A DNA stretch of 63,671 bases, the filler included. It is 3 parts of 3 records of this genome, joined end to end, with 100 filler letters (N's around TTAATTAATTAA, not from the genome) between each part and the next. Parts side by side here need not be neighbours in the genome. Positions count along the whole stretch, not along the records: positions 1 to 25,353 come from SRR31156797_4139; 2 more parts are not named here. One strand, 5' to 3'. Shown piece by piece: positions 5,964-28,798 of the stretch. Made by a program: the position numbers and the translations under genes. Each line of letters starts with the position of its first letter. Position 1 is the stretch's first letter. Under the pieces are notes generated by a model. It did no database searches. It saw only the letters and a list, made by a program, of their open reading frames with translations, and was not told the DNA's origin.

Positions 5964-6197
5964 TTAATCCAAACTATTATTAAACTCATCAATTAAAACC
6001 TGCGCTTTTTCTTTATCCTCTTCTAAAATTTCAACTTCAACAGGCTCAAAACCACCGGGAGTAACATGCCATGGTGCAATCGCGCCCATATATTGATTTT
6101 TTAAACTGGCTTTTATACCGTTGTCATTAAGCATTTCGGTTACCAATTCTGAATTCATCGGATTCCCTTTATAGATAACGATTAATTTTGATTCCAT
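5964..6197 (-). CDS. DUF2007-family small protein
   Basis: ELVTEMLNDNGI...VEVEILEEDKEKAQVLI pattern; 77 aa. Confidence 0.75.
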   Translation of the reverse strand: MESKLIVIYKGNPMNSELVTEMLNDNGIKASLKNQYMGAIAPWHVTPGGFEPVEVEILEEDKEKAQVLIDEFNNSLD

Positions 6198-6201
6198 CAG
6201 A

Positions 6202-6588
6202 TTAAACCTTTAAGATTACCTGTTCTAACTTATTTGTAATTTCCATAGCTATCTCTCCCAATTGTTCATTACTAACAGCCTGCATGGAAGCCAATGGGTT
6301 TATGGCTGCGATTTCCACTTGGCCTTCGGACACTTCCTGAACAATAATATTACAAGGTAACATAGTGCCAATTTTATCTTCAGCACTTAAGGATTTGTAG
6401 GCATATGGAGGATTACAGGCGCCTAAAATTCGATACTTCTTAAAATCAACATCTAACTTTTTCTTTAAGGTAGCAGTAACATCAATTTCAGTCAGAACAC
6501 CAAAACCTTCTTTTTGTAACTCCTGAGTTACCTTTTCGATGGCCTCTTCAAACGAGTAAGCGGTGGTTTTGTTAAAATAGTAATTCAT
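6202..6588 (-). CDS. DUF302-family protein
   Basis: GFGVLTEID...YRILGACNP...GTMLPCN. Confidence 0.92.
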   Translation of the reverse strand: MNYYFNKTTAYSFEEAIEKVTQELQKEGFGVLTEIDVTATLKKKLDVDFKKYRILGACNPPYAYKSLSAEDKIGTMLPCNIIVQEVSEGQVEIAAINPLASMQAVSNEQLGEIAMEITNKLEQVILKV

Positions 6589-6703
6589 TTTTCTACAATT
6601 AGGTTATTCTTATTAAATATACCTAAAAGAGAGTTAAATAGCCTTACAAAAAGAAATAATTTAAACCTTAAAAATGAATTTGTAGAAAAAGGCGCAAACT
6701 GTA

Positions 6704-7411
6704 TCAATTACAAAATTCCATCATATAAAAGTCAGCATCCTCATCACCTAATTCTGATGCTTTGCTTAAATCATCACAGGCCGCTTCCTTACTATCTAAA
6801 TTAAAATGAGCAATAGCGCGGTTAAAATAAAAATCAGCTATATCATTTTGTAATTCTATCGCAGTAGTATAATCCAGCACCGCATTCACAAAGTCACCAA
6901 GTTGAAAATATGTATTGGCTCTATCGTAGTATGCAAAACTATATTCAGGATTAATTTTTAATCCGCGACTAAAATCCTCAATCGCCTTCTCATATTCTTG
7001 TAATTGACAATAGGCACTCGCTCTGTCAAAAAAAGCATCGTAGTATTGATTATCAACTCCAATTAAACGATCAAATATTTTAATGGCTTCTTGAAAATCG
7101 TTTTGCTCATAATAAGCATTCGCCATATTATATAATGCATCCTTATAGTTAGAATCGAATTGAACACATTGCTTGTAGTTTTGAATAGCATATTTAAGAT
7201 TTCCTTTATCAAAATAGGCATTCGCCAGATAAAAATATAAGTTAGCATCTTCTGGCTGTTGGTTAACTGCGTTCTTAAATGATACAATGGCCTTATCATA
7301 CTCCTGGTTATCCAGATAAGTATTACCTTCCTTTACCAATTCTGATACTTGTCCGTTTAAAGCAATTTGAATGGCAAGAAATAAGGATAGAATAGATATG
7401 ATTTTATACAT
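6704..7411 (-). CDS. Secreted tetratricopeptide-repeat protein
   Basis: Signal peptide, about 6 TPR units, C-terminal ACDDLSKASELG. Confidence 0.9.
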   Translation of the reverse strand: MYKIISILSLFLAIQIALNGQVSELVKEGNTYLDNQEYDKAIVSFKNAVNQQPEDANLYFYLANAYFDKGNLKYAIQNYKQCVQFDSNYKDALYNMANAYYEQNDFQEAIKIFDRLIGVDNQYYDAFFDRASAYCQLQEYEKAIEDFSRGLKINPEYSFAYYDRANTYFQLGDFVNAVLDYTTAIELQNDIADFYFNRAIAHFNLDSKEAACDDLSKASELGDEDADFYMMEFCN

Positions 7412-7451
7412 AAAGCTTTCAATATTAAATTATAGCACAATAGAAGTTTCG

Positions 7452-7817
7452 TTATCGCCTGATATTCTTTCTTATCTTACGATTTCTTTTCAGCCTCTGC
7501 ATTTTCTTTTTTTGTGCCAAACGTTTCTTTTCTATTGCTTTAGCTTTTGCAGCTCTTCCTTTTTGCTTTAATTGAGCATTCGCTTTGTTTTCTTTTTGCT
7601 TTAGGTTTGATTCTCCCATTTTCATTTTCATTAAACGCATATCTCTTCGTTGATGAAAATTATCTCTTTTTACAAAGGCTTTTTCCCTGCTATTGGTACG
7701 AATAGCTATTTGCGTTGGATTTTCTACCTTTTTCTTCTGCTGAGTTTCCTGCGCATGTACAACCACCCCAATAAAAAAGAAACAAACTAATATTATAAAA
7801 CTCTTCACGCTGTTCAT
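7452..7817 (-). CDS. Hypothetical secreted, very basic (K/R/Q-rich) protein
   Basis: Signal peptide (VVVHA-QE) and an upstream TACATTTG promoter element at 7856-7863. Confidence 0.6.
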   Translation of the reverse strand: MNSVKSFIILVCFFFIGVVVHAQETQQKKKVENPTQIAIRTNSREKAFVKRDNFHQRRDMRLMKMKMGESNLKQKENKANAQLKQKGRAAKAKAIEKKRLAQKKKMQRLKRNRKIRKNIRR

Positions 7818-8159
7818 TTTTTCACCTCATTAATTAGTACTCGGTACTTGGATAACAAATGTAAGAAAAGGTTTAATACCCATCAGAAATTTTAAGGATC
7901 TACCTCGAAAAACCTTTTAACTTTTCCCTAAGATTTATTGTAAAAGATGTTAATGTTCAATTTCAAACCAATTCACAACAGTCATTTTCTCTTAAAACTC
8001 ATTTACAAGCACATAAAAGCAACAAAAACACAAAATATTTGCAACTGGTCGAAAATAATTTGTTAAATGTTTGTTAAAAAATAAAAATAAACTCTATATT
8101 AGTGCTCGGAAAAATTAATACCCTTTTCCCTTAAATCAGATAAAAAAAATCCGGAAAAG

Positions 8160-8189
8160 AAAAGACCTGCTGCCCTCAGGTCTTTTTTT
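8160..8189 (+). terminator. Intrinsic terminator-like hairpin
   Basis: AAAAGACCTG-ctgccct-CAGGTCTTTTTTT. Confidence 0.7.
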
Positions 8190-8194
8190 GTGCC

Positions 8195-8233
8195 CAAAAA
8201 TAAAGGGCAACTTTCCTATTGAAAATTGCCCTT
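8195..8233 (-). terminator. Probable terminator of the Crp/Fnr gene
   Basis: Minus strand AAGGGCAATTTTC-aatag-GAAAGTTGCCCTT followed by TATTTTT, just past the stop codon. Confidence 0.65.
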
Positions 8234-8259
8234 CGTGGTGAATTAATCACATATTTTTA

Positions 8260-8967
8260 TTAAACGTAAACGTTACCTATTTTAATTAGTTTTGGAATAT
8301 TTAGCAGTTTAATTTTTCTTCCGTTTAGCTCTATTAATTTATCCGCTTTAAATTCTGAAAGTAATCGAATGACAGACTCTGTAGCGGTACCTACCATATT
8401 TGCAAGCTCTTCTCTGGTTAACGAAATTTGAAGTGTATGATCCTGATCTAATTCGAAAGTATCCATCAATAACAATAACACTTCTGCTAATCTTTCTCTT
8501 ACCGTTTTTTGTGCAATATCTGTTAAGAACTTATTGGATTCACCTAACTCCTTACAGGTTAACTTCATCAATCCCATTGAAAAAGTTGGATTTTCTTTCA
8601 ATAATTTTGATAAGATATCTCCCGGAAAATAACAAAGAACAGTCTCCTGAATTACTTTGGTGGTACTACAAGCTAACTCATCACTAATTACAGATCTAAA
8701 ACCTATTAAATCCCCGGCTTTAGCAAATCGAATAATCTGCTCCTTCCCGTCAAATCCTGTTTTAAATATTTTCAGTATGCCATCTACTACCAAAAAAGTT
8801 CCATTAATTCTACTCCCCTCATGATAAATTGTACTTCCCCTTTTATGCAATGTAGCAGTCATGGATTGGTTCACTTCATCAACCTCCTCATTCGTTAAAC
8901 CTTTAAATATTTCAAAAGCACGAAGATCAACCGGCTCGTTATATGAAACACTTTGAACGTTCTTCAT
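8260..8967 (-). CDS. Crp/Fnr-family transcriptional regulator
   Basis: cNMP-binding-type domain plus HTH LTREELANMVGTATESVIRLLSEF. Confidence 0.95.
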   Translation of the reverse strand: MKNVQSVSYNEPVDLRAFEIFKGLTNEEVDEVNQSMTATLHKRGSTIYHEGSRINGTFLVVDGILKIFKTGFDGKEQIIRFAKAGDLIGFRSVISDELACSTTKVIQETVLCYFPGDILSKLLKENPTFSMGLMKLTCKELGESNKFLTDIAQKTVRERLAEVLLLLMDTFELDQDHTLQISLTREELANMVGTATESVIRLLSEFKADKLIELNGRKIKLLNIPKLIKIGNVYV

Positions 8968-9286
8968 TCCTTACTCTATTAAATTTATCCTGTAAAAATA
9001 GTGTTATTTCAATATAAATCCATCGTTTTCTTAAAATGTATAAAACATTAAGATACGATTATAGTTAATTAATAAATTTTAGTTGCTAAATTAACTCTGC
9101 AAAGATAGAAATTAAGCTTCAATTGTTTGAGATTTTGATTCAACCATAATAATAAAACCAAACATTGTTTCACCTTAAGGTTTGGAGTTTAAAATACGTA
9201 GGAATTAGTAATTTGTTGTAATAAATCATCTATTACCCTATATTTTTTGCATAAATTAATCATTTATAACCAAAATATAAAAACTC

Positions 9287-9700
9287 ATGAAAACTTCAAT
9301 TGATTTAAAATGGCTGGAAAATATGACTTTTGAGTCAGAAGTTAACGGACATAAAATTAAGGTAGATGCTGGAGAAGAGAGTGGTGGAAATAATGCCGGA
9401 GCAAGACCAAAACCATTAATGTTAGTGGCACTTGCCGGATGTACAGGTATGGATGTGATTTCTATTCTTAAGAAAATGCGCGTAAATATTGATGATTTAA
9501 CCATCTCTGTAGAAGCCAATATGAGAGAAGAACATCCCAAATATTACGATACAATGAAAGTCATTTATCATTTTAAAGGTACCGATTTACCAATGGACAA
9601 ACTCCAACGTGCCGTTCAATTATCTGAAGAACAATATTGCGGTGTTTCTGCCTTATATAAATTGGCCATTCCGGTATCTTTTGAGATAAAAGTAAATTAA
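9287..9700 (+). CDS. OsmC/YhfA-family protein
   Basis: G.RPKPLMLVALAGCTGMDV...SEEQYCGV. Confidence 0.92.
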   Translation: MKTSIDLKWLENMTFESEVNGHKIKVDAGEESGGNNAGARPKPLMLVALAGCTGMDVISILKKMRVNIDDLTISVEANMREEHPKYYDTMKVIYHFKGTDLPMDKLQRAVQLSEEQYCGVSALYKLAIPVSFEIKVN

Positions 9701-9710
9701 TTCAACATAT

Positions 9711-9740
9711 AGCACAAAGGATTAGATTCCTTTGTGCTTA
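9711..9740. terminator. Hairpin between convergent genes
   Basis: AGCACAAAGGA-ttagat-TCCTTTGTGCT. Confidence 0.65.
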
Positions 9741-9872
9741 TTCAATCAATATCTTCAACATCCTAATTGATAGATTATATGACATTAGCAGATTTAGAAA
9801 CCAAAGAGGTAATTATATAATGAGCGTCATGTAAACAAATCACATGTCTTTTGTCCATAGTCCAATGATCCG

Positions 9873-10943
9873 TTATAAAGATAACCTTTGGATTAGATTT
9901 TGCTGAGAAGGATATAAGGCCTCTAATGCTGGTTTGGATGCCAACTCAAAATCACTAAAATCAAACCCAGGTGCAACAGCACAACTTACCAGCGTATATC
10001 CATACCCTTCTTTAATTTCTGCAGCAAACCAGCAATCAGGCTCAACAGTATATTGTAAATGACCATTCATTGTGTCGGAAAGCTCAATATGCTTATAGTC
10101 CCCATTTTTATCAATCATATGAATAATCAGCGGCATACCATGATGGAAATACCATACTTCAGGAGATTTAATTTTGTGAAAGGCAGAAAACTGATTATTA
10201 GCTAACAAATAATATATTGAGGTTAATGCATGACGGTCTCCATTAAAAGACGCTGGCAATCCTGACTGAACAATCTGCATTTCAGATCGGTAAACTTCCT
10301 TATACCAACCCCCTTCCGGGTGTGCCTGAAGTTTTAAATCACCAATAAGCATTTCTGCAATACGACCAACATATTTATCAGGTACAGTTAAATAGTTCGT
10401 ATCAACAAAGTTTTGTAATAAGGATTGTGCTTCTGCCAGCTTTTCTTCCCAGTGTTTAATAGAATTTTGGCCAATAATATCCGTAACACATTTAACACCA
10501 ACAAAAGGGATATCATGCATTTTACAAACTCTGGCTACCGCAAATGATTCCATATCGAACACATCTCCTGTACCATCCGAAGAAGTTAAAAATGTATCCC
10601 CTGTATTACAAGTACTATCAAAATCCCAATCTTTAAAAAAACCACATTTTTCCACCTCATCCGTAAAATCTTCATTAAAAGCCACTCCAAAATTCTGGAG
10701 TTTCTCCATATCTCTGTCAACAAATTGTCTGCACAAATGGATAGAACCTATTTCGTAATCAAGCGTTCCTGCAGTTCCTATATTAAGCACTACATCCGGA
10801 TGATGTTGCTCAATAGCTCTTTCAACTGCTAAAGCCGCAGCTATCTTTCCTACTCCGGTTCTGCAATAATGAAATATACATTGAGGCATGTCAACTTGCA
10901 CGCGCTCTTCTTCAACGGCATATACGATTAAAACATTAAGCAT
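9873..10943 (-). CDS. Fusion of an MTA/SAH-nucleosidase-like (PNP_UDP_1) domain and a DUF985 (Cupin_5) cupin
   Basis: N-terminal TGVGK, NIGTAG, TGDTF, DMES, VKCVTD; C-terminal LQAHPEGGWYKE, TSIYYLL, SAFHKI..PEVWYFH.G, SCAVAPGFDFSDF. ATG start chosen at 10943; TACTTTTG promoter element at 10960-10967. Confidence 0.88.
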   Translation of the reverse strand: MLNVLIVYAVEEERVQVDMPQCIFHYCRTGVGKIAAALAVERAIEQHHPDVVLNIGTAGTLDYEIGSIHLCRQFVDRDMEKLQNFGVAFNEDFTDEVEKCGFFKDWDFDSTCNTGDTFLTSSDGTGDVFDMESFAVARVCKMHDIPFVGVKCVTDIIGQNSIKHWEEKLAEAQSLLQNFVDTNYLTVPDKYVGRIAEMLIGDLKLQAHPEGGWYKEVYRSEMQIVQSGLPASFNGDRHALTSIYYLLANNQFSAFHKIKSPEVWYFHHGMPLIIHMIDKNGDYKHIELSDTMNGHLQYTVEPDCWFAAEIKEGYGYTLVSCAVAPGFDFSDFELASKPALEALYPSQQNLIQRLSL

Positions 10944-11035
10944 AATCTTCAATTTTTATCAAAAGTAAGGATTATTTCAGCAAAATGATGGTCTGCTTTT
11001 TGTTAATTTGCCTGTCTATAATCAAACTTTTATTT

Positions 11036-11824
11036 ATGATGAACAGGTTTTATTTTGTATCCATTCTTCTTATAACTATTCTCTCATCAACTCATGCACA
11101 AGAAGATAAACCACAAAAACACTATATGGGAGTTACATTAGGAATGGATCCTTTTTCTTTAATTAAAGAAACTGCAAAAGCTGCCCTTAATAAAGAAAGC
11201 GATATTTCAGATGACGATTACTCAGAAGAGGACGCTGATCCCCCACTCATATTTATATTAGGAGCATATTACAAATTTAAACCCTTTAACAAACTAGATT
11301 TTGACGCTGGATATAAGCTCTCATTTACCTCAAGAAATGAGAATGAAGTTTGGCTGAATGACACACGCTACTATTATAATGCAGGAGGAGGTCATTCTTT
11401 ATATTCACGTATTAATTTCTCATTCAGAAATATTCATGAAGATGGAGAAGGACATATTTGTACTTCACTGGAAACAGGATACCATTATAGTCCTGCCAAG
11501 TTAAAACTATATAATGCAGATGATGAGCTCCAAAGCATTACAAAACTTAGAGAAAAAAACTTATATGCTGAATTTAAAGTAGGCTATAAATATGGTTGGG
11601 AAGGTCAGGCTATCGCTTTCAATCTTGCCATCAATAACGTACCATATGAAGGTGCCACATACAATGATCGCAAAAATAGAGGGTTTAGTTATGCTGGTAG
11701 AGGTGCTCTGATTTTTAGCATTGATTACGAGTTTAGCTTTAAAGGTAATCAAACCAAAAAACTGCAAAAACAACGAGAAAGAAAGAACAGAAGAATAATT
11801 GATAAGTATGAAGGTAAATATTAA
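11036..11824 (+). CDS. Hypothetical outer-membrane beta-barrel-like protein
   Basis: Signal peptide from MMNRFYF, amphipathic beta-strands, basic tail. Confidence 0.55.
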   Translation: MMNRFYFVSILLITILSSTHAQEDKPQKHYMGVTLGMDPFSLIKETAKAALNKESDISDDDYSEEDADPPLIFILGAYYKFKPFNKLDFDAGYKLSFTSRNENEVWLNDTRYYYNAGGGHSLYSRINFSFRNIHEDGEGHICTSLETGYHYSPAKLKLYNADDELQSITKLREKNLYAEFKVGYKYGWEGQAIAFNLAINNVPYEGATYNDRKNRGFSYAGRGALIFSIDYEFSFKGNQTKKLQKQRERKNRRIIDKYEGKY

Positions 11825-11937
11825 ACCGTGAATCCACCAATTCCATCAAAAAACAAAATCAACAGCTATAAATCAACAAAGTTGTTCTGTACTCCTCACA
11901 TTTTTTAATAATTTGGCAGAGCAAAACACTAGCTGAT

Positions 11938-12675
11938 ATGAACTATTTTTTGATTGTCAACCTGATTATTTTAAATATTCTGGCATGGCTTATAATAAGC
12001 TATTTCTGGAGCTACTGGAATTATAAAATATTTAAACCTTACCTATGGTTAGAAATGGTGAAGCAAAAAAAAGTAGCCAAAATACTATTACAATTAGAGC
12101 GTAAGTTTAAAGATAGAAATCGTTTCTACCATATCTGGTTTACGCTTCATCATATTTCAAAGCAAAATATTCCTGGAGACCTGGCAGAAGTAGGCGTTTT
12201 TAAGGGAGAAACCGCTAAAATCGTTCATCATCAACTACCTGATAGAAAACTTTATTTGTTCGATAGCTTTGAAGGATTACCGAAACAAGTTATCAGAGAG
12301 GACTGTGACGGTACAGTCAGGCCACAAACCGTTAATTTTGAGCAAGCCGACAAACAACAAGTTAAAAAATATATAAGAGGTAATAAGAACATAAGAATCT
12401 ACGAAGGAATTTTTCCGGACACAGCTCAGGACATCACTAACAAGCAGTTTGCCTTTGTTCATCTTGATGCCGATTTGTACCAATCTACTTTGGATGGACT
12501 GCAGTTCTTCTATCCTAAATTAAGTGCCGGAGGAAGCATTCTTGTTCATGATTATAACCATAACTGGGAAGGCGTAGTTAAGGCTGTTGATGAGTTTGAG
12601 AAGACCATCCCAGAGCAATTTATTCCATTAAATGATATGTATGGTTCTGTCATTCTGACCAAAAACAAACAATAA
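11938..12675 (+). CDS. TylF/MycF/NovP-family O-methyltransferase with N-terminal membrane anchor
   Basis: GDLAEVGVFKG, LFDSFEGLP, VHLDADLY, VHDY. Confidence 0.9.
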   Translation: MNYFLIVNLIILNILAWLIISYFWSYWNYKIFKPYLWLEMVKQKKVAKILLQLERKFKDRNRFYHIWFTLHHISKQNIPGDLAEVGVFKGETAKIVHHQLPDRKLYLFDSFEGLPKQVIREDCDGTVRPQTVNFEQADKQQVKKYIRGNKNIRIYEGIFPDTAQDITNKQFAFVHLDADLYQSTLDGLQFFYPKLSAGGSILVHDYNHNWEGVVKAVDEFEKTIPEQFIPLNDMYGSVILTKNKQ

Positions 12676-12690
12676 CAAAACCCTAAACTC

Positions 12691-14964
12691 ATGTATTTAA
12701 GACTTTACCTGATTATTATATGTATAACCATTTCAAGCAACATTTGGAGTCAGGATGATAGTGAACAAAAAAACCGACCGAAAATTGGCTTGGTTTTAAG
12801 TGGTGGTGGAGCCAAAGGTATGGCTCATATAGGTGTTTTAAAAGTGCTTGAAGAGTTAGATATACGTCCGGATTACATTACCGGAACTAGTATGGGTAGC
12901 ATCATGGGTGGATTATACGCCATTGGCTATTCAGCCAATGAGTTGGATTCTATTGTTCGCTTAATGGACTGGAATAACATGCTCAGCGATAAAATTCCGC
13001 TTTCAAGAGTAGTGCAGGAAGAAAAACACGACTACAACCGCTTTTTGTTTCAATTTGATTTAACCCCCAGAGGGCCGGCATTACCTAATGCCATGGTTGT
13101 TGGACAAGGTATTGCAGAAGAAATGAATTACCTCACATGGCATATAACAGGAATCGATAATTTTAATGACTTTCAAACCCCTTTTCAGTGTGTGGCTTCT
13201 GATCTTATTTCTGGGGAAACGCATGTTTTTAAGTCTGGTAATCTGGTAACTGCTATGCGTTCCAGCATGGCCATTCCTTCGGTATTTTCGCCAGTTGTAC
13301 TGGATAGTATGCTGTTGGTAGATGGGGGTGTCTTGGATAATATTCCTGTGCTGGCATGTCGCAAAATGGGGGCTGATATCATCATAGCCGTCAATGTTGG
13401 TTTTAGAGAAAAACCCAATATCAATGATTTCAGTTCTATTGGTGATATATTAATGGGCGCAGCGATGATTCGCAGTAATTTTGAAGCCCAAAGATCGCTT
13501 GATGAAACAGACATACTCATTGCACCGGATTTAGCTAATTACAGTGCTGCCAGTTTTTTTGACGGGGACGCCATTATTGAACTAGGCGAAATTGCAGCTC
13601 GCGAAAGATATGATGAATTAGCTTCATTAGCTGAATTTTTAGATCAGTTTCCTAAAAAGGAAATAGAAAAACCAGAGCTTCTAAGCAAAATTTATATCGA
13701 AGATATTAAAGTAGAGAATCTTAAATACCTGAATGATAAATTTGTGATTGGTAAGTCAGGACTTCAGCCTCATAAGTATTACAGCAAAACCGAAATTAAC
13801 GAAGGCTTGCATCACCTCATTGGAACGCGCTATGTTGATAATGTAAATTACAGATTAGATGAAGGTAACAATGGATTTATTTTGACTTTGCTTCCTACAG
13901 AATCTTATAGAAGCAAATATAATTTCTCCCTTCAATATAATAACACCTATAAAGCCGGAGCCATTTTTAATGTTGTATTTAGAAACCGTATTCTTAAAGG
14001 TTCTAAAATATCCATGAGCGCCAACATTTCCGAGTATCCAATTCTTAACGCTGAATTTATTGATTACAAAGGAAGTAAGCAATTGATTGCAAACTATATA
14101 AAAGCCAGATTTGAGGGAAATTCTATTCCTTATTTCTCAGACAATGGAAATGAAATTGGTAGTTTTAAACAGAACTACACTAACTCGGAAACCGGCTTTT
14201 TATTTACCCCGGATACCAAGCGTATTTTCAGGATGGGTGTGTATTATAAACGTCAGATTAATAATTCGGGTAGAGGATTGCTGGACTTACTGGCTGATAA
14301 TGTGGAGAAAATTGGAAACCATTGGTGGGGTGTAAAATTTAACTACAATAAAAACTCTTTCAACGAACAGTTCTTTGCCAGTACAGGAAACATTTTTGAT
14401 GTAAACCTGGAATATCCAATAGATTTTGGCATCATTTACACAGGATCTGACAGTTCATTTATTAAACTAAACGACCTTGTGGATATTCCTAATGAGAGTT
14501 ATTTAAAATTTAGCGCCTATTACGAACAGCTTATTCCTCTTAACTCAAAACTAAACATATCGTACATGGCTGCTTTAGGAGGGGCAACAAAGGACTTAGG
14601 AAGCACACAATATTTTCATATTGGAGGGTTGAAAGCCACGGCACGATCAGGCGACATTCCGTTTGCCGGGATGATGCCCAAAGAAATTACAGCTCAACAA
14701 TTTTTTATGTCGCAGGTTAATTTGCGATACGAGTTATTCAATAGCACCTACGCCCACTTTTCTGTTGGGGCGATCGATTATCAGTCGAAGTTTGAGTATT
14801 TGAGTTTCGTTCCAGTGCGAGGTTTAGTATCTGAGGATATTGTAGTTGGAGCTAATATTGTTTTATCATATAATTCCATCTTAGGTCCCATTAAGTTTGG
14901 ATATGGACGATCTACATTGCATAAACAAAGCAGATGGTTTTTTACGGCTGGTTTTCCTTTTTAA
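12691..14964 (+). CDS. Patatin-like phospholipase with POTRA and C-terminal beta-barrel (PlpD / type Vd-like)
   Basis: SGGGAKG, GTSMG, DGG motifs; signal peptide; barrel ending in FTAGFPF. Confidence 0.9.
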   Translation: MYLRLYLIIICITISSNIWSQDDSEQKNRPKIGLVLSGGGAKGMAHIGVLKVLEELDIRPDYITGTSMGSIMGGLYAIGYSANELDSIVRLMDWNNMLSDKIPLSRVVQEEKHDYNRFLFQFDLTPRGPALPNAMVVGQGIAEEMNYLTWHITGIDNFNDFQTPFQCVASDLISGETHVFKSGNLVTAMRSSMAIPSVFSPVVLDSMLLVDGGVLDNIPVLACRKMGADIIIAVNVGFREKPNINDFSSIGDILMGAAMIRSNFEAQRSLDETDILIAPDLANYSAASFFDGDAIIELGEIAARERYDELASLAEFLDQFPKKEIEKPELLSKIYIEDIKVENLKYLNDKFVIGKSGLQPHKYYSKTEINEGLHHLIGTRYVDNVNYRLDEGNNGFILTLLPTESYRSKYNFSLQYNNTYKAGAIFNVVFRNRILKGSKISMSANISEYPILNAEFIDYKGSKQLIANYIKARFEGNSIPYFSDNGNEIGSFKQNYTNSETGFLFTPDTKRIFRMGVYYKRQINNSGRGLLDLLADNVEKIGNHWWGVKFNYNKNSFNEQFFASTGNIFDVNLEYPIDFGIIYTGSDSSFIKLNDLVDIPNESYLKFSAYYEQLIPLNSKLNISYMAALGGATKDLGSTQYFHIGGLKATARSGDIPFAGMMPKEITAQQFFMSQVNLRYELFNSTYAHFSVGAIDYQSKFEYLSFVPVRGLVSEDIVVGANIVLSYNSILGPIKFGYGRSTLHKQSRWFFTAGFPF

Positions 14965-15031
14965 TAAAATGTTTAGAATTCAGTAAACTTAAACGCTGAA
15001 TTATCTGTTTATTCTCCACAAAAGCAAAATA

Positions 15032-15664
15032 ATGAACAGAGATTTATCCCATATAAGAAAAGACTTCACTAAAGAATCATTGGATATTCAGCACTTGAAA
15101 GACCACCCTGTAGAGCAATTTAAAATATGGTTACATGATGCCATTGATCAGAAGATACCTGAACCTACTGCCATGACACTGGCAACTGCCTCTGAAAACG
15201 GTATACCTTCTGCCCGAATTATTCTTCTGAAAAAAATTAACGAGAAAGATGGCTTTTGCTTCTTCACCAACTACAAAAGCAAAAAAGGTGCTGACTTAGC
15301 ACAAAACCATCATGCTGCACTTAACTTTTTTTGGCCAGATTTAGAACGCCAGGTTAGAATTAACGGTGTAGTTGAGAAATTAGCAGAACAGGAAAGCGAA
15401 GATTATTTTAAAAGCCGTCCAACTGACAGTCAGTTAAGCGCTATTGCATCACCTCAAAGCCAGATTATCAAAGATCGAGATCAATTGGAAAAATGGTTTC
15501 AGGAGGCTAAATCTAAAGAAATTAAACGTCCTGCTCACTGGGGTGGTTATGCATTATATCCATCTGAAATTGAATTCTGGCAAGGACGTTCCGGAAGATT
15601 ACATGATAGAATCCGATTTCGTTTAGCAAACAATAAATGGATTAAAGAACGTCTTGCGCCTTAA
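15032..15664 (+). CDS. pdxH: Pyridoxine/pyridoxamine 5'-phosphate oxidase
   Basis: PSARIILLK, FTNYKSKKG, IEFWQGRSGRLHDR, RLAP. Confidence 0.97.
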   Translation: MNRDLSHIRKDFTKESLDIQHLKDHPVEQFKIWLHDAIDQKIPEPTAMTLATASENGIPSARIILLKKINEKDGFCFFTNYKSKKGADLAQNHHAALNFFWPDLERQVRINGVVEKLAEQESEDYFKSRPTDSQLSAIASPQSQIIKDRDQLEKWFQEAKSKEIKRPAHWGGYALYPSEIEFWQGRSGRLHDRIRFRLANNKWIKERLAP

Positions 15665-15674
15665 TCAGTCTTCG

Positions 15675-16592
15675 CTATATATTTTTGGCAAGTGTCAGTT
15701 CTCTAAACACATCTTCCATACTTTTTTGATCTTGATTAAGGGTTATTAATTTTAGATTTTCAGCAACAGCTTTATCAAAAATCATTTCCCTAATATCTTC
15801 TTTGGCCGTAATCTGATAAGTTTTTGAATTAATAAGCTGTACATTAATAACCTCTTGCATAGTTGAAAAGAAAGACTCTGCAACAGGCTGAAGAAATTCA
15901 CAGCTAATCTCGTAATTACTTTTCAATGCAGCATTTGTAAGATTACTGGCCATTTCATTGGCTACAATTTCACCCTTATTTATGATAATAACTTTCTCGC
16001 AAATAGCCTGTACTTCTTGCATAATATGTGTTGAAAGCATCACTGTCTTCTGCTCCCCTACTTTTTTAATCAAATCTCGTACCTCAATAATTTGATTTGG
16101 ATCTAGCCCTGTTGTCGGTTCATCCAATATTAAAACCTCCGGATCTGGTAAAAGAGCTTGCGCCAAACCAACACGCTGCCTGTATCCTTTCGATAAAGCC
16201 TTTATTTTTTTTGTTCGTTCAGGAACCAAGCCTGTCATTTCTATAATTTCCTCAACTCTACTTTTAGTTTGTCTTCCTAGTTTATAAATACCGGCAATAT
16301 GATTCAGGTATTCTTTTACATACATATCCAGGTAAAGCGGATTATGCTCCGGCAGATAACCAATCTTTTTACGGTATTCCAGACTATCCTCATCGACATC
16401 CATGCCACAAACCTTTACTATCCCACTCGTTTGAGGAAGATACCCGGTAATAATCTTCATCATTGTTGATTTCCCGGCTCCGTTTGGTCCCAAAAAACCA
16501 ACCACTTCACCGGAAGCAATCTCAAACGATACATTATTTAAAGCTTTCTGTTTACCAAATAAGCGCGATACTTCAGAAACGGATATAGACAT
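15675..16592 (-). CDS. gldA: Gliding-motility ABC transporter ATP-binding protein
   Basis: GPNGAGKSTMMK, GYLPEHNPLYLDMYVKEYL, LSKGYRQRVGLAQA. Confidence 0.9.
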   Translation of the reverse strand: MSISVSEVSRLFGKQKALNNVSFEIASGEVVGFLGPNGAGKSTMMKIITGYLPQTSGIVKVCGMDVDEDSLEYRKKIGYLPEHNPLYLDMYVKEYLNHIAGIYKLGRQTKSRVEEIIEMTGLVPERTKKIKALSKGYRQRVGLAQALLPDPEVLILDEPTTGLDPNQIIEVRDLIKKVGEQKTVMLSTHIMQEVQAICEKVIIINKGEIVANEMASNLTNAALKSNYEISCEFLQPVAESFFSTMQEVINVQLINSKTYQITAKEDIREMIFDKAVAENLKLITLNQDQKSMEDVFRELTLAKNI

Positions 16593-16701
16593 AATCTTAA
16601 ATTTTGATGCGTAAAGTTAATCAACATCATCAAATACTAAATGCTATTTTTTAAAAGATGAAACTAAAAAACGTACTTTTGTGCTCATAAAAGCTATTAA
16701 A

Positions 16702-18501
16702 ATGAGCGCATCAAATTATTGCATAGATCTTTTTCAATACAAACGATATAAAACCTCCGAAGTTAAGATTGGTAATCTATTGATGGGAAATGATCATCCC
16801 ATTGTTGTGCAGTCTATGACTACCACCAATACAAACGATACGGAAGCTACTGTCGAACAAATCAAAACGATTTTTGATGCAGGAGGACAAATGGTTCGTA
16901 TGACCACACAGGGGCAAAAAGAAGCTACTAATCTAAAAAACATAAAGGAAGTACTTACAGAACAAGGATATAACGGCCCTCTGGTTGCCGATATTCACTT
17001 TAATCCTAATGCAGCATCAATTGCCGCACAGCATATTGAAAAAGTACGCATTAATCCAGGTAACTTTGTTGATGGTGCCAAAAAATTTGAAACCATCGAA
17101 TACACTAACGAAACTTATTATGAGGAATTAGAATTGGTTAAACGTAAACTTATTCCTCTCTTAAAAATTTGTAAGAAAAATAACACGGCCATTCGTATTG
17201 GTACCAATCATGGATCTTTATCCGACCGAATTATGAGTCGTTATGGCGATACTCCTAAAGGGATGGTTGAATCCTGTATGGAGTTTTTACGCATTTGCCA
17301 ATCTGAAAATTTCTACAATATAGTACTCAGCATTAAAGCCAGTAATGCACGTATAATGGTTCATACGGTTAGGTTACTAGTTCAAAAAATGCATGAAGAA
17401 GATATGTATTTTCCTTTACACCTTGGCGTTACTGAAGCCGGTGAAGGTGAAGATGGTCGAATTAGATCTGCCGTTGGGATTGGAACCTTACTAGCTGATG
17501 GTATTGGAGATACTATTAGAGTATCCTTAACAGAAAATCCTGAAAATGAAATTCCGGTTGCTGATGCTATCATCCAATACACGCTAGAAAAAGAAAACCA
17601 CCCTCATATAAAACCCGTTGTCGATATATCGTCTTATTCCCCCTTCAATTATGTAAAGCGAAAATCTGCTTCTGTTTTAAATATTGGAGATAATAATGTT
17701 CCCATTGTTATTAGTAATAAAAAATCCATACAAGATACGCCGGATTATATTTTTGAGAACAATAATTTAAATACCAATAATACAGCATATCCATTTTTAG
17801 ATTATCAATCCAGAATTGAAGATATAGCTAAAAAAGATGCTGTCCATTTTGTTTCTGTTTGCTATGATCAATTAGGAGATGAATTTAAAAACTTTATTCT
17901 TGAACATGAGAATGCCATCCTCATTCTAAAAAGTAAGCATATGAATAGTGTGGCTGAACAGAGAGCGGCATTTCTATGGTTCAATAACCATGAGATTAAA
18001 AATCCGGTTATTCTACACAAAAAATACAGCGAAACATTTAATCATCAAACACAAATAAAAGCGTCTTGTGATTTTGGCCCTTTGTTAATGGATGGTTTTG
18101 GTGATGGAATCTGGATAGAAGCAGATGGAGAAGTGGAAGAAGGTTTGATGAATAAAACGGCCTTTTCAATTTTACAAGCAGCACGAGTAAGATTCGAAAA
18201 ACCAGATTATATCTCTTGTCCGGGATGTGGAAGAACACTTTTTGGTCTTCAGGAAACAACTGCAAAAGTAAAATCAAAAACATCTCATTTAAAAGGACTT
18301 AAAATTGCAGTCATGGGTTGTATCGTAAATGGTCCGGGAGAAATGGCAGATGCAGATTATGGTTATGTTGGGTCTGGCCCTGGTAAAATCACCTTATATC
18401 ATCAAAAAGAAGTAGTTAAAAGAAATATCGACGAACAAGATGCAGTTAACGAGCTAATTCAACTCATCAAAGAAAATGGAGATTGGGTTGATCCTGTATA
18501 A
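16702..18501 (+). CDS. ispG: 4-hydroxy-3-methylbut-2-en-1-yl diphosphate synthase, long form with inserted domain
   Basis: VQSMTTT, VRINPGN, RIGTNHGSLS, PLHLGVTEAG, SCPGCGR, MGCIVNGPGE; TACTTTTG promoter element at 16674-16681. Confidence 0.97.
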   Translation: MSASNYCIDLFQYKRYKTSEVKIGNLLMGNDHPIVVQSMTTTNTNDTEATVEQIKTIFDAGGQMVRMTTQGQKEATNLKNIKEVLTEQGYNGPLVADIHFNPNAASIAAQHIEKVRINPGNFVDGAKKFETIEYTNETYYEELELVKRKLIPLLKICKKNNTAIRIGTNHGSLSDRIMSRYGDTPKGMVESCMEFLRICQSENFYNIVLSIKASNARIMVHTVRLLVQKMHEEDMYFPLHLGVTEAGEGEDGRIRSAVGIGTLLADGIGDTIRVSLTENPENEIPVADAIIQYTLEKENHPHIKPVVDISSYSPFNYVKRKSASVLNIGDNNVPIVISNKKSIQDTPDYIFENNNLNTNNTAYPFLDYQSRIEDIAKKDAVHFVSVCYDQLGDEFKNFILEHENAILILKSKHMNSVAEQRAAFLWFNNHEIKNPVILHKKYSETFNHQTQIKASCDFGPLLMDGFGDGIWIEADGEVEEGLMNKTAFSILQAARVRFEKPDYISCPGCGRTLFGLQETTAKVKSKTSHLKGLKIAVMGCIVNGPGEMADADYGYVGSGPGKITLYHQKEVVKRNIDEQDAVNELIQLIKENGDWVDPV

Positions 18502-18675
18502 TTTTTTATAGGTTCATCCGACCCTTTTGAAGTCCTTTTGTATTAAAAAGTTATTCATTTGTCACGTCCAATGAAATAATTATGTATTTTTAATACCCAT
18601 TGCCGATCTTTTTTTGGACGGTAAATTATGTTTTTCTAAATTGCAGAACCTTAGATAAACCCGATTTTAAGATAC

Positions 18676-19461
18676 ATGAAACGACTTTTATACCTTACAT
18701 TGCTCCTTATTTTTGCAGTTGCATCTGTAAAATCTGAAGAAATAGTTCTCAATGGTACTTTTCAGGGAGACAATTTATTTGTAAAAAATCCTTTTGCTCC
18801 TAGCGGGGTTGGATTTTGTGTATATGAAGTTACTGTAAACGGACTTACATCTACCGACGAAATAAATTCCAGTGCTTTTGAAGTTGATTTAACAGTATAT
18901 GGATTTAAAGTAGGAGATCCATTAACAGTAGCTATTAAATACAAAGAAGGATGTCAACCTATTGTATTAAATCCTGAAGTGCTTAATGCTCGTGCTACCT
19001 TTGAAATAACTAAACTTGAAGTGAAAGACAATAAAGTTATTTGGAACACTGCAAAAGAATCAGGTAGCCTTCCGTTTATTGTTGAGCAATTCAGATGGAA
19101 CAAATGGGTAGAAGTTGGTAGAGTAAATGGTAACGGAACAATGGATGCAAACTCTTATCAAGCTCAGGTTCGTTTCCACTCTGGTGAAAATCGTTTTAGA
19201 ATTAAGCAATCGGACTACAGAGGAAAATCTAAATACTCAGAGGAAATAACTTTTGCTTCAACTAAACCTGAAGTAACTTTTGCACCACAAAGGGTAGATG
19301 ATTTAATTACCTTCTCTGCACCTACCATGTATGAGATTTATGATGAATATGGAGGTATTATTTTTAAAGGTTACGGAGCTACCATTAAAGTATCAGGTTT
19401 AAATAAAGGTAAGTACTATATGAATATGGATAATAAATTGGCCATTTTCAACAAAAAGTAA
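18676..19461 (+). CDS. Hypothetical secreted all-beta protein with a T9SS-CTD-like C-terminus
   Basis: Signal peptide; C-terminus YEIYDEYGGII...VSGLNKGKYY...FNKK. Confidence 0.6.
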   Translation: MKRLLYLTLLLIFAVASVKSEEIVLNGTFQGDNLFVKNPFAPSGVGFCVYEVTVNGLTSTDEINSSAFEVDLTVYGFKVGDPLTVAIKYKEGCQPIVLNPEVLNARATFEITKLEVKDNKVIWNTAKESGSLPFIVEQFRWNKWVEVGRVNGNGTMDANSYQAQVRFHSGENRFRIKQSDYRGKSKYSEEITFASTKPEVTFAPQRVDDLITFSAPTMYEIYDEYGGIIFKGYGATIKVSGLNKGKYYMNMDNKLAIFNKK

Positions 19462-19491
19462 GATTATAATTCAATAAGAAATAAGATATGT

Positions 19492-19519
19492 AAGCCGGAG
19501 TAATTTCCGGCTTTTTTTT
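19492..19519 (+). terminator. Intrinsic terminator
   Basis: AAGCCGGA-gtaatt-TCCGGCTTTTTTTT. Confidence 0.85.
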
Positions 19520-19657
19520 GCACCAAACCATTATTATACCCTTAGTTTTACAGATATTCGTTAAAAAAATTCAATAATTATCATATCTGCTTAATGATTA
19601 GCGAACAATTCACTAATTTTACGGCCTTTAAAAATTAAGAATTATTAAATAGAACAT

Positions 19658-21097
19658 ATGCGCAGAACTAAAATCGCCGCAATTCTTAAAGATCCGGAAT
19701 TCGGCAAAGAAGTAAATGTAAAGGGATGGGTAAGAACTCGAAGAGGTAATAAATTCGTTAATTTCATCGCTCTTAACGATGGTTCATCTATTCATAATTT
19801 GCAAATAGTTGCAGATGTTCCAAAGTTTGATGAAGAATTAATTAAAAGAATTACAACAGGATCAGCGATTTCTGTAGTAGGTAAAATGACAGAATCAAGC
19901 GGTAGTGGTCAAAAAGTTGAAATTCAGGCAGAATCAATAGAAGTAATCGGTGATTGTAATGCAGATGAATATCCATTACAACCGAAAAAACACTCCTTGG
20001 AATTTTTAAGAGAAATAGCGCATTTGCGTTTTAGAACCAATACTTTTGGTGCTATTACACGTGTGCGTCATGCCATGATTTTTGCAGTGCACAAGTTTTT
20101 CTCGGAAAAAGGTTTTTACAATATTCACACACCTATTATTACAGCATCTGATGCTGAAGGTGCCGGTGAAATGTTCAGAGTTACCACATTAGACGTTAAT
20201 AATATCCCGAAAACGGAAGAAGGAGAAGTTGATTTTGATAAAGACTTCTTTGGAAAATCAACCAACCTGACTGTTTCAGGTCAGTTAGAAGGAGAATTAG
20301 CTGCTTTAGCCATGTCTGAAATCTACACATTCGGACCTACTTTTAGAGCTGAAAACTCCAATACAACTCGTCACCTGGCTGAGTTTTGGATGATTGAACC
20401 TGAAATGGCTTTTTATGACCTGAACGACAATATGGATTTGGCTGAAGAGTTTACTAAATACCTAATCAGCTATGCATTAGAAAACTGCATGGAAGATTTA
20501 GAATTCTTAAGTAAGCGTTTGCAGGAAGAAGAAAAGAATAAAAAGGCTGATGAAAAATCAATGGAACTGATTGAGAAACTTCGATTTGTTGCAGAGAACG
20601 ATTACGTTCGCCTAACCTATTCTGAAGCCATTGATATTTTAATGAATTCAAAACCGCATAAAAAAGGTAAATTCCAATATCCAATTAATGGTTTTGGAAG
20701 TGATTTACAAGCGGAGCACGAACGCTTTTTGGTTGAAAAGCACTTTAAAAAGCCGGTTATCTTAACAGATTACCCAATGTCGATTAAAGCTTTTTACATG
20801 AAGCAAAGTGAAGATGGAAAAACCGTAAGAGCTATGGATGTGTTGTTCCCGCAAATTGGTGAGATTATTGGTGGATCACAACGTGAGGAAAGCTACGATA
20901 AATTAGTAGAAAGAATGCGTGCTTTAGATTTACCAGAGAAAGAAATGTACTGGTATTTAGATACACGTAGATTTGGATCAGTACCACACAGTGGATTTGG
21001 TTTAGGTTTTGAAAGATTAATGTTGTTTGTAACTGGAATGACCAATATTAGAGACGTAATTCCATTTCCAAGATCACCAAAGAATGCAGAATTTTAA
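19658..21097 (+). CDS. asnS: Asparagine--tRNA ligase (Bacteroidota contig)
   Basis: [44 protein letters not shown]. Confidence 0.98.
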
Positions 21098-21131
21098 GTT
21101 AATTGCTTAATTAGTTATAAAACAATAATAC

Positions 21132-21164
21132 AAAGCAGCTTGTCCATGGATAAGCTGCTTTTTT
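21132..21164 (+). terminator. Intrinsic terminator of asnS
   Basis: AAAGCAGCTTGTCC-at-GGATAAGCTGCTTTTTT. Confidence 0.85.
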
Positions 21165-21252
21165 CTTACAAAAATCAAACCACAATACCCCTTAAAGTTG
21201 TATGCTATTAAAAAAACGGCATAACAGTTGTACATTATTGCTCGAATTATCT

Positions 21253-21260
21253 TAATTTTG
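21253..21260 (+). promoter_or_regulatory. Bacteroidota -7 promoter element upstream of rpoN
   Basis: TAATTTTG matches TAnnTTTG. Confidence 0.5.
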
Positions 21261-21359
21261 TTGTGTACTCAAAGCTTCTGGTATTACTGTATTTTAACAG
21301 TTATACAGCACTCTTACAGATTATAGTTCTTATAACACAACAGGCTGAAGAAAGATTAT

Positions 21360-22808: not shown

Positions 22809-22829
22809 GAAAGATCACCTGAATTTAAG

Positions 22830-23435
22830 ATGGGAAAAAGAATTGCTACTATTATTTCAACCGTATTTCACCCTTTACTACTGCCAACATTAGGTTTATT
22901 GGTTATTTTCAGCACACAAAGCCATTTAACTTTTATACCATTTGAATACCGCAGGTTAGTAACCATCATTGTATTTGTAAGCACTTGCATTTTGCCACTA
23001 AGTATTATGCCATTATTTTTACAAATAGGCTTAATAAAATCCCTACAGATGGAAAGCACCAGAGAGCGAATTATTCCACTATTAACAACAGCGGGATTCT
23101 TTGTGTTAGGTTACTTTTTCCTTAAAAAGTTTCCTCTACCTTCATTTATTCCCTTGTTCTTTTTAGCAACTATTATCACCGTTCTCTTATCTATTCTCAT
23201 CACTTTTTTTTGGAAGATAAGTATTCATATGGTAGGAATCGGAGGTCTTTTAGGAGCCGTAATTTCGATGGCTTTGAAATACAATGTGAATACGGCAATA
23301 TGGGTTATACTTATTACAGCTATTGCTGGAATAATTGGCAGTGCAAGACTTTTTTTGGAAGCGCATAACTCCAAACAAGTATATGCCGGATTTTTACTTG
23401 GACTAGTAGTGATCAGCTTTATGATTATCGCATAA
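22830..23435 (+). CDS. PAP2-superfamily-like membrane protein
   Basis: About 6 TM segments, WKISIH, SARLFLEAH...VYAG. Confidence 0.75.
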   Translation: MGKRIATIISTVFHPLLLPTLGLLVIFSTQSHLTFIPFEYRRLVTIIVFVSTCILPLSIMPLFLQIGLIKSLQMESTRERIIPLLTTAGFFVLGYFFLKKFPLPSFIPLFFLATIITVLLSILITFFWKISIHMVGIGGLLGAVISMALKYNVNTAIWVILITAIAGIIGSARLFLEAHNSKQVYAGFLLGLVVISFMIIA

Positions 23436-23465
23436 AAAAAGCTGCCTTAACCAAGACAGCTTTTC
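23434..23465. terminator. Bidirectional terminator between convergent genes
   Basis: AAAAAAAGCTG-ccttaaccaaga-CAGCTTTT. Confidence 0.7.
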
Positions 23466-23487
23466 CTATTAATTTTCTTTCTGCATT

Positions 23488-28558: not shown

Positions 28559-28586
28559 ATAATCCTCTTCAGTGAGTTCAGTAAAG

Positions 28587-28771: not shown

Positions 28772-28798
28772 ATAATTAATATGAAAAAAGGAATGTGT

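Follow-up and report, generated by a model that had tools for sequence, protein, structure and literature searches.

A Conserved Fusion of a Trimmed MTA/SAH-Nucleosidase-Like Domain and a Cff1-Type DUF985 Cupin in Marine Bacteroidota

Introduction

What chemistry could bring a nucleosidase and a cupin of the Cff1/DUF985 family together in one polypeptide? The question is raised by a gene in a 63,671-nucleotide stretch of DNA (here, the window) that consists of three parts from three records of one genome, joined end to end with 100 filler letters between each part and the next; the gene lies in the first part (positions 1 to 25,353, from record SRR31156797_4139). The gene, here called the fusion, is of marine Bacteroidota lineage and encodes an N-terminal domain that resembles the nucleosidases of 5'-methylthioadenosine (MTA) and S-adenosylhomocysteine (SAH), followed by a Cupin_5/DUF985 domain. 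A first reading made from the letters of the window (the sequence-only reading) had proposed, by Rosetta-stone logic, that the cupin processes the ribose or ribose phosphate moiety, or the base, released by the nucleosidase, either in a LuxS-independent route to a furanone resembling autoinducer 2 (AI-2) or in a nucleoside salvage step. The answer matters beyond this locus: Cff1/DUF985 proteins are reported from thousands of bacteria, fungi, and some viruses, and the substrate is left undefined in those portions of the 2021 to 2026 literature that concern the family.

Judged by its sequence, the fusion is a genuine, conserved two-domain protein with both active sites intact, in a new combination of known families. 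Tentatively, it is read here as a cytoplasmic two-step enzyme that would act on 5'-substituted adenosines derived from S-adenosylmethionine (SAM).

Results

The fusion gene and its distribution

The gene (Table 1) is a single uninterrupted open reading frame (ORF) of 356 amino acids from its ATG. The ORF listing opens the same frame at a TTG (9873..10952, 359 amino acids), and 356 amino acids is the commonest length among the orthologues. The first half matches the Pfam family PNP_UDP_1 (E = 3.5e-18; 66.3 bits against a cut-off of 25.1) and the second half matches Cupin_5/DUF985 (PF06172; E = 1.2e-45; 155.4 bits; model positions 2 to 139 of 139). The nucleosidase half carries the motifs TGVGK (residues 29 to 33), GTAG (56 to 59), GDTF (115 to 118), DMES (130 to 133), and VTD (153 to 155), and the cupin half carries HPEGG (208 to 212), IYYLL (243 to 247), FHK (255 to 257), and VAPGF (323 to 327). 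Frame and Pfam matches thus bear out the single ORF joining a nucleosidase to a full DUF985 cupin that the sequence-only reading had described; every motif that it listed is present, and the domain borders that it gave were off by a few codons at most.

The fusion is not unique to this assembly, as it would be if it had arisen here by loss of a stop codon. A copy that is 97% identical is found in the complete 5.7-Mb genome of an uncultured Saccharicrinis sp. (G001), within a 19-kb stretch that is collinear with the first 25 kb of the window (6000 to 25000; 97% DNA identity). A word-indexed protein search returned 96 matches (E up to 0.001) among 1849 candidates, and 45 of the matched clusters (P0001 to P0045, 48 to 97% identical, two of them fragments) hold both Pfam domains; those with a named source come from Saccharicrinis, Labilibacter, Carboxylicivirga, and Marinilabiliaceae. 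Both domains were covered in 14 of the 80 genome loci kept. Among 121 genomes sampled from the same family, the whole fusion lies in one stop-free frame in 29; the others gave a match to the nucleosidase only (15), to the cupin only (8), or no match (69). In a sample of 301 Bacteroidales genomes (the order sample), the short nucleosidase occurs in 13, once as the fusion and 12 times as a stand-alone gene (E ≤5e-21). A representative library of 1.84 billion proteins contained only two other 50%-identity clusters with a full-length short-form fusion, P0044 and P0102. In databases, the fusion proteins are named only "cupin domain-containing protein" or "predicted sugar epimerase," and the fusion is not described in the literature found on the Cupin_5/DUF985/YML079W family or on cupin-methylthioadenosine fusions.

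The AlphaFold2 model of the two-domain chain, built from a 63-sequence alignment, has a mean pLDDT of 94.1 and a pTM of 0.88. In this model, the interdomain arrangement is predicted to be fixed, with the cupin tightly packed, and the linker is confident as well (pLDDT blocks of 94 to 95), although its sequence is poorly conserved: residues 191 to 200 include zero invariant columns in the 47-row alignment of fusions. Among solved chains, Foldseek found none that spans both halves. Prediction of a complex from the two domains as separate chains, made without alignments or controls, scored 0.00 and carries no weight either way.

An MTA/SAH-nucleosidase-like N-terminal half

The best NCBIfam model for the N-terminal half is NF004168 (PRK05634, "nucleosidase," 185 positions), which covers residues 4 to 184 with model positions 3 to 182 at 72.2 bits, against a cut-off of 129; P0102 scores 102.5 bits against the same cut-off. 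The equivalog cut-offs for MTA/SAH nucleosidase (MTAN) are not reached (TIGR01704, 47.8 against 73.8 bits; NF004079, 47.1 against 169 bits), nor is that for futalosine hydrolase (MqnB; TIGR03664, 58.3 against 124.7 bits). All 25 PDB matches listed are MTA/SAH or MTA nucleosidases, save one unnamed Arabidopsis chain, and the best of them is 4g89 (1.6e-10). Foldseek comparison of the N-terminal half with MTANs gives a target-normalized TM-score of ∼0.6 (E ∼1e-11).

By alignment, the domain has counterparts of the MTAN residues whose numbering and roles are assumed here, namely, Glu12, Ser76, Phe151, Met173-Glu174, Arg193, Ser196, Asp197, and Phe207 (Table 1); mutants E12Q and D197N of MTAN are named in PDB titles. 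In the tree alignment, E13, T57, F118, M131, E132, D155, and W165 are present in all 45 fused sequences, and in the 47-row fusion alignment, E13 and T57 are present in 45 rows, the other two rows being truncated at the N terminus. Among 47 stand-alone short sequences, E13 is found in 46 (with one gap) and D155 in 44 (with Asn in the other three).

At ∼185 residues, the domain is ∼45 residues shorter than MTAN (∼230 residues). The alignments place one gap, of ∼20 residues, after strand 1 and a second opposite an MTAN loop, presumably the loop that reaches into the 5'-alkylthio pocket of the partner subunit and caps the 5' pocket. The pocket residues V10, V31, F118, M131, and W165 are hydrophobic, which suits an alkylthio or deoxy 5' group and not a phosphate. 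The reading of this domain as a putative adenine-releasing N-ribosyl hydrolase for nucleosides with a nonpolar 5' group, the 5' pocket being open or remodeled, is therefore well supported by the alignments. The domain appears to work like MTAN yet stands outside the MTAN equivalog family, as a trimmed member of the MTA/SAH-nucleosidase lineage.

With MTA/SAH nucleosidase itself (MtnN/Pfs, EC 3.2.2.9; PDB 1JYS and 4G89), the domain shares the fold, the catalytic Glu/Glu/Asp set, and the ribose- and adenine-contacting residues, but it differs in being shorter by the loop and the ∼20 residues noted above, in scoring below the curated cut-offs, and in being fused to a cupin. Besides the NF004168/PRK05634 model, which aligns with it end to end, there are the stand-alone Bacteroidales nucleosidases of 185 to 200 amino acids, which are 40 to 59% identical to it and have all the catalytic residues in common. 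These proteins are free of the cupin, their function is so far a predicted one, and the fused clade nests among them.

A Cff1-type C-terminal half

The PDB matches of the cupin half begin with 1yud (2.6e-28), followed by 3loi/3lzz, 3m3i, 1znp, and the yeast protein YML079w/Cff1p (1xe7; 3.6e-7). In the alignment with 1xe7, HPEGG falls on HREGG, which contains E44 of Cff1p, and AFHK falls on KFHK, which contains H96; the corresponding residues, E210 and H256, are invariant in all 47 fusions. Target-normalized Foldseek TM-scores for the C-terminal half are 0.92 (1yud), 0.94 (3loi), and 0.78 (1xe7). Thus, Cff1p and the bacterial DUF985 proteins (1XE7, 1YUD, 1ZNP, 3LOI/3LZZ, and 3M3I) have the same family, fold, and E44/H96 pair; they stand alone, whereas here the cupin is the C-terminal half behind a nucleosidase. 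Pfam detects no LuxS domain (PF02664) in the fusion protein.

According to the published description, Cff1p is required for formation of 4-hydroxy-5-methylfuran-3(2H)-one (MHF), an AI-2 mimic, E44 is essential for this, and the yeast cff1 mutant is complemented by homologues from Pseudomonas, Staphylococcus, and the Bacteroidota genus Algoriphagus (PMC8092285). The same account reports luxS in only ∼15 to 20% of cff-bearing bacteria and gives the substrate of Cff1p as not known (PMC8092285). About 97% of the fungal homologues are reported to conserve E44 and H96 (PMC13267403), and a 2026 preprint, in the part that concerns it, still calls Cff1p simply "the MHF synthase." The statement of the Cff1 literature in the sequence-only reading agrees with these accounts as far as they bear on it (PMC8092285, PMC13267403). 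Ribulose-5-phosphate is described as a source of LuxS-independent AI-2 activity (PMC2443158).

Recurrence of the pairing and other partners of Cupin_5

The combination of PNP_UDP_1 and Cupin_5, for which the sequence-only reading had proposed a wider search, recurs in short, long, and reverse-order forms. A search of longer proteins with the cupin domain gave 94 matches among 423 candidates, and a search of the representative library gave more. In eight long-form proteins of 412 to 461 amino acids (P0111, P0112, P0114, P0115, P0119, P0189, P0192, and P0237), a full-length PNP_UDP_1 domain precedes the cupin, and three of these (P0115, P0119, and P0192) score above the TIGR01704 cut-off. Metagenomes yielded five more loci of the long form (L138 to L142). 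The reverse order, with the cupin first, is represented by a single predicted protein, P0171. The neighbors at the long-form loci are unrelated genes (transposases, ATP synthase, and Vut_1).

Nucleosidase trees split the short from the long forms (branch support of 100 in one tree and of 92 and 97 in another). The long forms make up one clade beside the canonical Bacteroidales MTANs, and the 42-member main fused clade nests among the stand-alone short forms; phmmer with the short nucleosidase domain did not detect the long-form nucleosidase domains. The unconstrained cupin tree likewise separates short- and long-form cupins (clades with support of 97 and 99). Nevertheless, the grouping of all 20 fused cupins in one clade was not rejected by an approximately unbiased (AU) test (p = 0.58), and the constrained tree was 7.6 log-likelihood units better. 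A claim of three independent N-to-C fusions was accordingly cut back, as the AU test allows one clade of fused cupins. Only two fusion events can safely be counted from these trees and architectures, one in the N-to-C order and one in the reversed order of the single protein P0171. Beyond these, there may have been further fusions or one very old fusion kept through extreme divergence, and either would imply selection for the linkage.

A separate feature of the long and reverse forms is an Asn at the position of MTAN Asp197, seen in all five long forms that were aligned and, by eye, in P0189, P0192, P0237, and P0171. Most of the long and reverse forms also have an Asn in the GD(A/S)F motif. 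The forms with Asn may have another base preference or altered catalysis.

Cupin_5 is joined to other domains as well. These partners include IF-2B/MtnA-like isomerases (P0117 and P0181), SAM-dependent methyltransferases (P0249, TPMT-like, and P0285, PrmA-like), NUDIX domains (four clusters), HAD-IIA phosphatases (at least six), RNase_T, and GNAT, together with scattered cases of Clp_N, MBL, DAO, GH2, and DnaJ. The theme that seems to recur among these architectures, with noise, is nucleotide or nucleoside cleavage and the SAM by-product branch. Tandem double cupins were also observed (P0047, P0149, P0176, and P0270).

LuxS, MTAN, and AhcY in the genomic background

In the Pfs-LuxS pathway, SAH is converted to S-ribosylhomocysteine and then to 4,5-dihydroxy-2,3-pentanedione (DPD) and homocysteine. 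To that extent the pathway resembles the order of domains in the fusion: a nucleosidase acts first, followed by an enzyme that acts on a 5-substituted ribose. Among the LuxS genomes of the order sample, luxS lies within 1 kb downstream of canonical MTAN on the same strand in 18 of 23, and within 300 bp in 17 (for example, G229:C1:37709-38860 and G101:C30:51058-52209); of the other five, four have no MTAN over the cut-off, and in G197 the genes are on different contigs. This MTAN-then-luxS order mirrors the nucleosidase-first order of the fusion. The two systems differ in that the cupin is unrelated to LuxS in sequence and in fold, LuxS-like catalysis by the cupin is hypothetical, and the genomes with the fusion carry AhcY for SAH.

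Five genomes with the fusion, the 97%-identical G001 and four others (G002 to G005), served as proxies for the genome of the window. None of the five has LuxS, none has IF-2B/MtnA, and none has a canonical MTAN over the cut-off, the only weak matches to MTAN being the fusion itself; all five have AhcY and exactly one Cupin_5 domain, that of the fusion. A spermidine-synthase-like gene (∼520 amino acids), a source of MTA, is present in four. In G001, the sole genome in which the PNP_UDP_1 genes were typed, the other members are a PunA-type purine nucleoside phosphorylase (PNP), a short AMP nucleosidase, and a uridine-phosphorylase-like enzyme, and no MTA phosphorylase (MTAP) was found. With no MTAN, MTAP, or IF-2B seen and AhcY present, the fusion is the sole visible enzyme for cleavage of MTA and 5'-deoxyadenosine, and SAH can go, and probably does go, via AhcY. 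A simple substitute for Pfs-LuxS is therefore not required.

The order sample includes 28 genomes with canonical MTAN, 23 with LuxS, 89 with Cupin_5, and 60 with the spermidine-synthase-like gene. The correlation with absence of luxS that the sequence-only reading had suggested is seen both in the fusion genomes and here: Cupin_5 is found in 0 of the 23 LuxS genomes, against 6.8 expected (hypergeometric P = 2e-4, with relatedness ignored).

Spermidine synthase was considered as a marker of MTA production and set aside as uninformative, given its presence in four of the five fusion genomes, in 1 of 12 genomes with a stand-alone short nucleosidase, and in 3 of the 28 with canonical MTAN. As those three are also the only MTAN carriers among the 60 genomes with the spermidine-synthase-like gene, the route by which MTA and 5'-deoxyadenosine are disposed of in the order is puzzling.

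Discussion

Proposed function

Under the two-step reading put forward above, the substrates would be MTA, 5'-deoxyadenosine, and possibly SAH. In the first step, the N-terminal domain would hydrolyze the N-ribosidic bond to give adenine and a 5-substituted ribose. In the second, which is the more conjectural, the Cff1-type cupin would take the released ribose, and E210 and H256 would drive an enediol-type isomerization; where a leaving group is present (methylthio or homocysteinyl), elimination would then yield a thiol and a compound of the DPD or MHF type. The nucleosidase would be able to act on its own as well, with the cupin as an addition to it. The IF-2B/MtnA-like and SAM-dependent methyltransferase partners of Cupin_5 point to the same chemistry, that of the SAM by-product branch. 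Carried to its limit, this reading would make the fusion a single-polypeptide, LuxS-independent synthase of an AI-2-type signal: the nucleosidase would produce 5-methylthioribose or S-ribosylhomocysteine, and the cupin would perform LuxS-like isomerization and beta-elimination with release of methanethiol or homocysteine and DPD or MHF. This stronger version seems doubtful, and a furanone or AI-2-like product of the cupin is unproven.

There are partial precedents for such chemistry. In the MTA-isoprenoid shunt of Rhodospirillum, as described in PMC6302742, a cupin releases methanethiol from an MTA-derived pentulose phosphate. Compared by description, this enzyme, 1-methylthio-xylulose-5-phosphate methylsulfurylase, is a chemical precedent; it differs in that its substrate is a phosphorylated ketose and that a kinase, an isomerase, and a RuBisCO-like enzyme act before it, none of which was found in the fusion genomes (IF-2B in 0 of 5). 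In Tetrahymena, MtnAK and MtnBD are described as joining consecutive steps of MTA salvage in one polypeptide, and MtnD is also a cupin (PMC6302742, PMC3698126). Those proteins belong to other families and perform other steps, and neither contains a nucleosidase or Cupin_5.

Several observations weigh against the two-step reading. The nucleosidase domain scores below every NCBIfam equivalog cut-off, and with the gap opposite the MTAN loop, its substrate range may differ. 5-Deoxyribose has no leaving group, so that elimination is inapplicable to the by-product of radical-SAM enzymes, and because DUF985 structures bind purine nucleotides, the cupin might bind the nucleoside and not the free sugar. 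At the syntenic locus of one genome, G361, the nucleosidase stands alone (194 amino acids, 71% identical to the N-terminal domain, all motifs intact; ORF 2059-2643 of L200, G361:C3:4111500-4116500) between the TylF-like and OsmC genes; it ends 68 bp before the OsmC gene, the cupin having been cleanly deleted, and the fusion query found no cupin elsewhere in that genome. Since the nucleosidase was kept when the cupin was lost, the cupin step is dispensable. The unfused genes are not linked either: no Cupin_5 is found among 36 neighboring ORFs at the 12 stand-alone short-nucleosidase loci, and Cupin_5 occurs anywhere in the genome in 4 of these 12, never adjacent, which is the background rate (89 of 301; P = 0.50). 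Canonical MTAN (28 of 301) and the short form (13 of 301) are both missing from most of the sampled Bacteroidales, a scarcity that points to an accessory function, and with a spermidine-synthase-like gene in only 1 of the 12 stand-alone-nucleosidase genomes, MTA is not an obvious common substrate. Finally, the mutual exclusion of LuxS and Cupin_5 may stem from lineage, as most of the LuxS genomes are small.

The Rosetta-stone argument of the sequence-only reading thus holds in part. The fusion is conserved, the catalytic residues are kept, and the pairing recurs; on the other side, the separate genes are not neighbors at any of the 12 stand-alone loci and co-occur no more than by background, and G361 dropped its cupin.

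Alternative explanations

The cupin might instead bind a purine nucleoside or nucleotide, either lending the nucleosidase specificity or allosteric control or catalyzing a step on the nucleoside while its glycosidic bond is still in place. The reported structures lead in this direction, with GDP in crystals of BbDUF985 (3LZZ of the 3LOI/3LZZ pair; PMC11594714) and, according to the discussion in PMC8092285, a nucleotide in co-crystals of Cff1p, and so do the altered pyrimidine metabolism described for the yeast cff1 mutant (PMC9812406) and the partners of Cupin_5, since NUDIX, HAD-IIA (UMP-phosphatase-like), RNase_T, and nucleosidase domains all use nucleotides or nucleosides. Such a role is nevertheless judged unlikely. 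The residue E44, which is needed for MHF, is invariant here, which argues for catalysis over mere binding; MHF is a sugar-derived C5 compound; and the nucleosidase comes first in the short form as well as in the eight long ones.

General nucleoside catabolism, in which adenosine or inosine would be cleaved and the cupin would be an isomerase or anomerase of ribose or ribose-5-phosphate, with no link to SAM or to signaling, is distinctly unlikely. G001, the one fusion genome typed in this respect, is already equipped with a PunA-type PNP, a short AMP nucleosidase, and a uridine-phosphorylase-like enzyme; the 5' pocket of the fusion is hydrophobic, as in MTAN; and the MtnA-like isomerase and SAM methyltransferase partners point to SAM by-products. 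For it speak the phosphoglucose-isomerase activity with which BbDUF985 is cited (PMC8704077), the NUDIX and HAD-IIA fusions, which suggest ribose or ribose-phosphate products, and the surroundings of the most divergent fusion (L014, 4644-7819; 47% identity). There, an NrtR-type NUDIX/winged-helix regulator follows the fusion, and the second gene upstream, beyond an RF-1-domain gene on the opposite strand, belongs to the isochorismatase family; this context, which resembles that of NAD or ADP-ribose metabolism, is a weak hint.

It is also quite improbable that the two activities are unrelated and that the fusion is a neutral accident persisting in one lineage. An accident would fit the unfused genes, which show no signal of neighborhood or co-occurrence, the loss of the cupin but not the nucleosidase in G361, the joining of Cupin_5 to such unrelated partners as GNAT, Clp_N, DnaJ, and GH2, and the outcome of the AU test, which leaves a single origin of the fused cupins, so that there may be fewer N-to-C fusions than the nucleosidase tree suggests. 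It would not account for a fusion that is kept down to 47 to 48% identity with both active sites invariant, for the joining of the same families in reverse order and with a deeply different nucleosidase subfamily, or for interdomain packing that is modeled with confidence (pTM of 0.88). An assembly or annotation artefact in which a lost stop or a frameshift merges two genes can be dismissed: nothing was found in its favor, and stop-free frames in 29 of 121 family genomes, 14 genome loci, and 45 protein clusters from several sources rule it out.

The main value of the fusion is as a strong, cheaply testable lead to the substrate of Cff1/DUF985 proteins and to a possible production of AI-2-type signals without LuxS in marine Bacteroidota. 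The recurrent covalent link to MTAN-type nucleosidases narrows the candidates for that substrate to 5-substituted riboses from SAM by-products. Were the signal-synthase version true, the substrate class of DUF985/Cff1 would be 5-thio-substituted riboses (and, in yeast, ribose or ribulose 5-phosphate), and the mutual exclusion of Cupin_5 and LuxS would be explained. With LuxS-like chemistry, many LuxS-less marine Bacteroidota could make AI-2-type signals and recover sulfur from MTA in a new way. If the cupin is not LuxS-like, the fusion still defines an unstudied family of trimmed nucleosidases.

Locus context and other features of the window

In the window, the fusion gene stands alone at its locus, between a convergent OsmC-like gene and a divergent ORF (Table 1). 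The OsmC-Crp and TylF-like-patatin flanks are kept, on other strands, in 11 of the 14 fusion loci, which is synteny by descent. A candidate promoter element of low weight upstream of the ATG, TACTTTTG, fits what is taken here to be the Bacteroidota -7 consensus, TAnnTTTG. No RNA families were found in the window with Rfam.

Elsewhere, the locus context gives weak hints. In a Bacteroidales metagenome-assembled genome (MAG) (L012, 4493-7074), a radical-SAM/BATS gene (HydG/HydE-like) precedes the fusion by 78 bp on the same strand and itself follows genes for an [FeFe]-hydrogenase large subunit and a 2Fe-2S ferredoxin. At two related stand-alone loci (L093 and L095), a YgiQ-type radical SAM gene adjoins the nucleosidase.

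Table 1. Coordinates and residue equivalences of the fusion gene and its surroundings in the window
Feature	Position	Strand	Remarks
Whole fused gene	9873..10943	-	356 codons plus stop at 9873-9875; alternative TTG start at 10952
Short MTAN-like nucleosidase domain, N-terminal, ∼residues 1-185	10389..10943	-	Predicted from Pfam, NF004168, PDB alignments, and Foldseek
E13	10905-10907	-	MTAN Glu12 equivalent by alignment
T57			MTAN Ser76 equivalent by alignment
F118			MTAN Phe151 equivalent by alignment
M131/E132	10548-10553	-	MTAN Met173-Glu174 equivalents by alignment
K151			MTAN Arg193 equivalent by alignment
T154			MTAN Ser196 equivalent by alignment
D155	10479-10481	-	MTAN Asp197 equivalent by alignment
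W165			MTAN Phe207 equivalent by alignment
Short linker, ∼residues 186-196	10356..10388	-	Sequence poorly conserved; modeled with high confidence
Cupin_5/DUF985 (Cff1-type) domain, C-terminal, ∼residues 197-356	9876..10355	-	Predicted from Pfam, PDB, and Foldseek
E210	10314-10316	-	Cff1p E44 equivalent
H256	10176-10178	-	Cff1p H96 equivalent
TACTTTTG	10960..10967	-	16 nt upstream of ATG; candidate -7 promoter element, low weight
OsmC-like gene, convergent, downstream of fusion	9287-9700	+	Followed by a Crp/Fnr regulator
Divergent ORF without assignment, upstream of fusion			Beyond it, genes for a TylF-like methyltransferase and a patatin-like protein

The GC content of the window jumps beyond the part that holds the fusion, from 0.32 to 0.38 before 26 kb to 0.44 to 0.59 at ∼26000 to 44000, and comparison of positions 30000 to 42000 with G001 gave one match only (185 bp, 71%). 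In the high-GC part are genes for a sigma-54 activator, an ABC sugar transporter, SDR, RpiB, Dak1/Dak2, PanE, and an inositol monophosphatase, as well as one for a class-II LysRS-like protein that adjoins a radical SAM gene. Either this part is a foreign island or the assembly contains a chimeric join.

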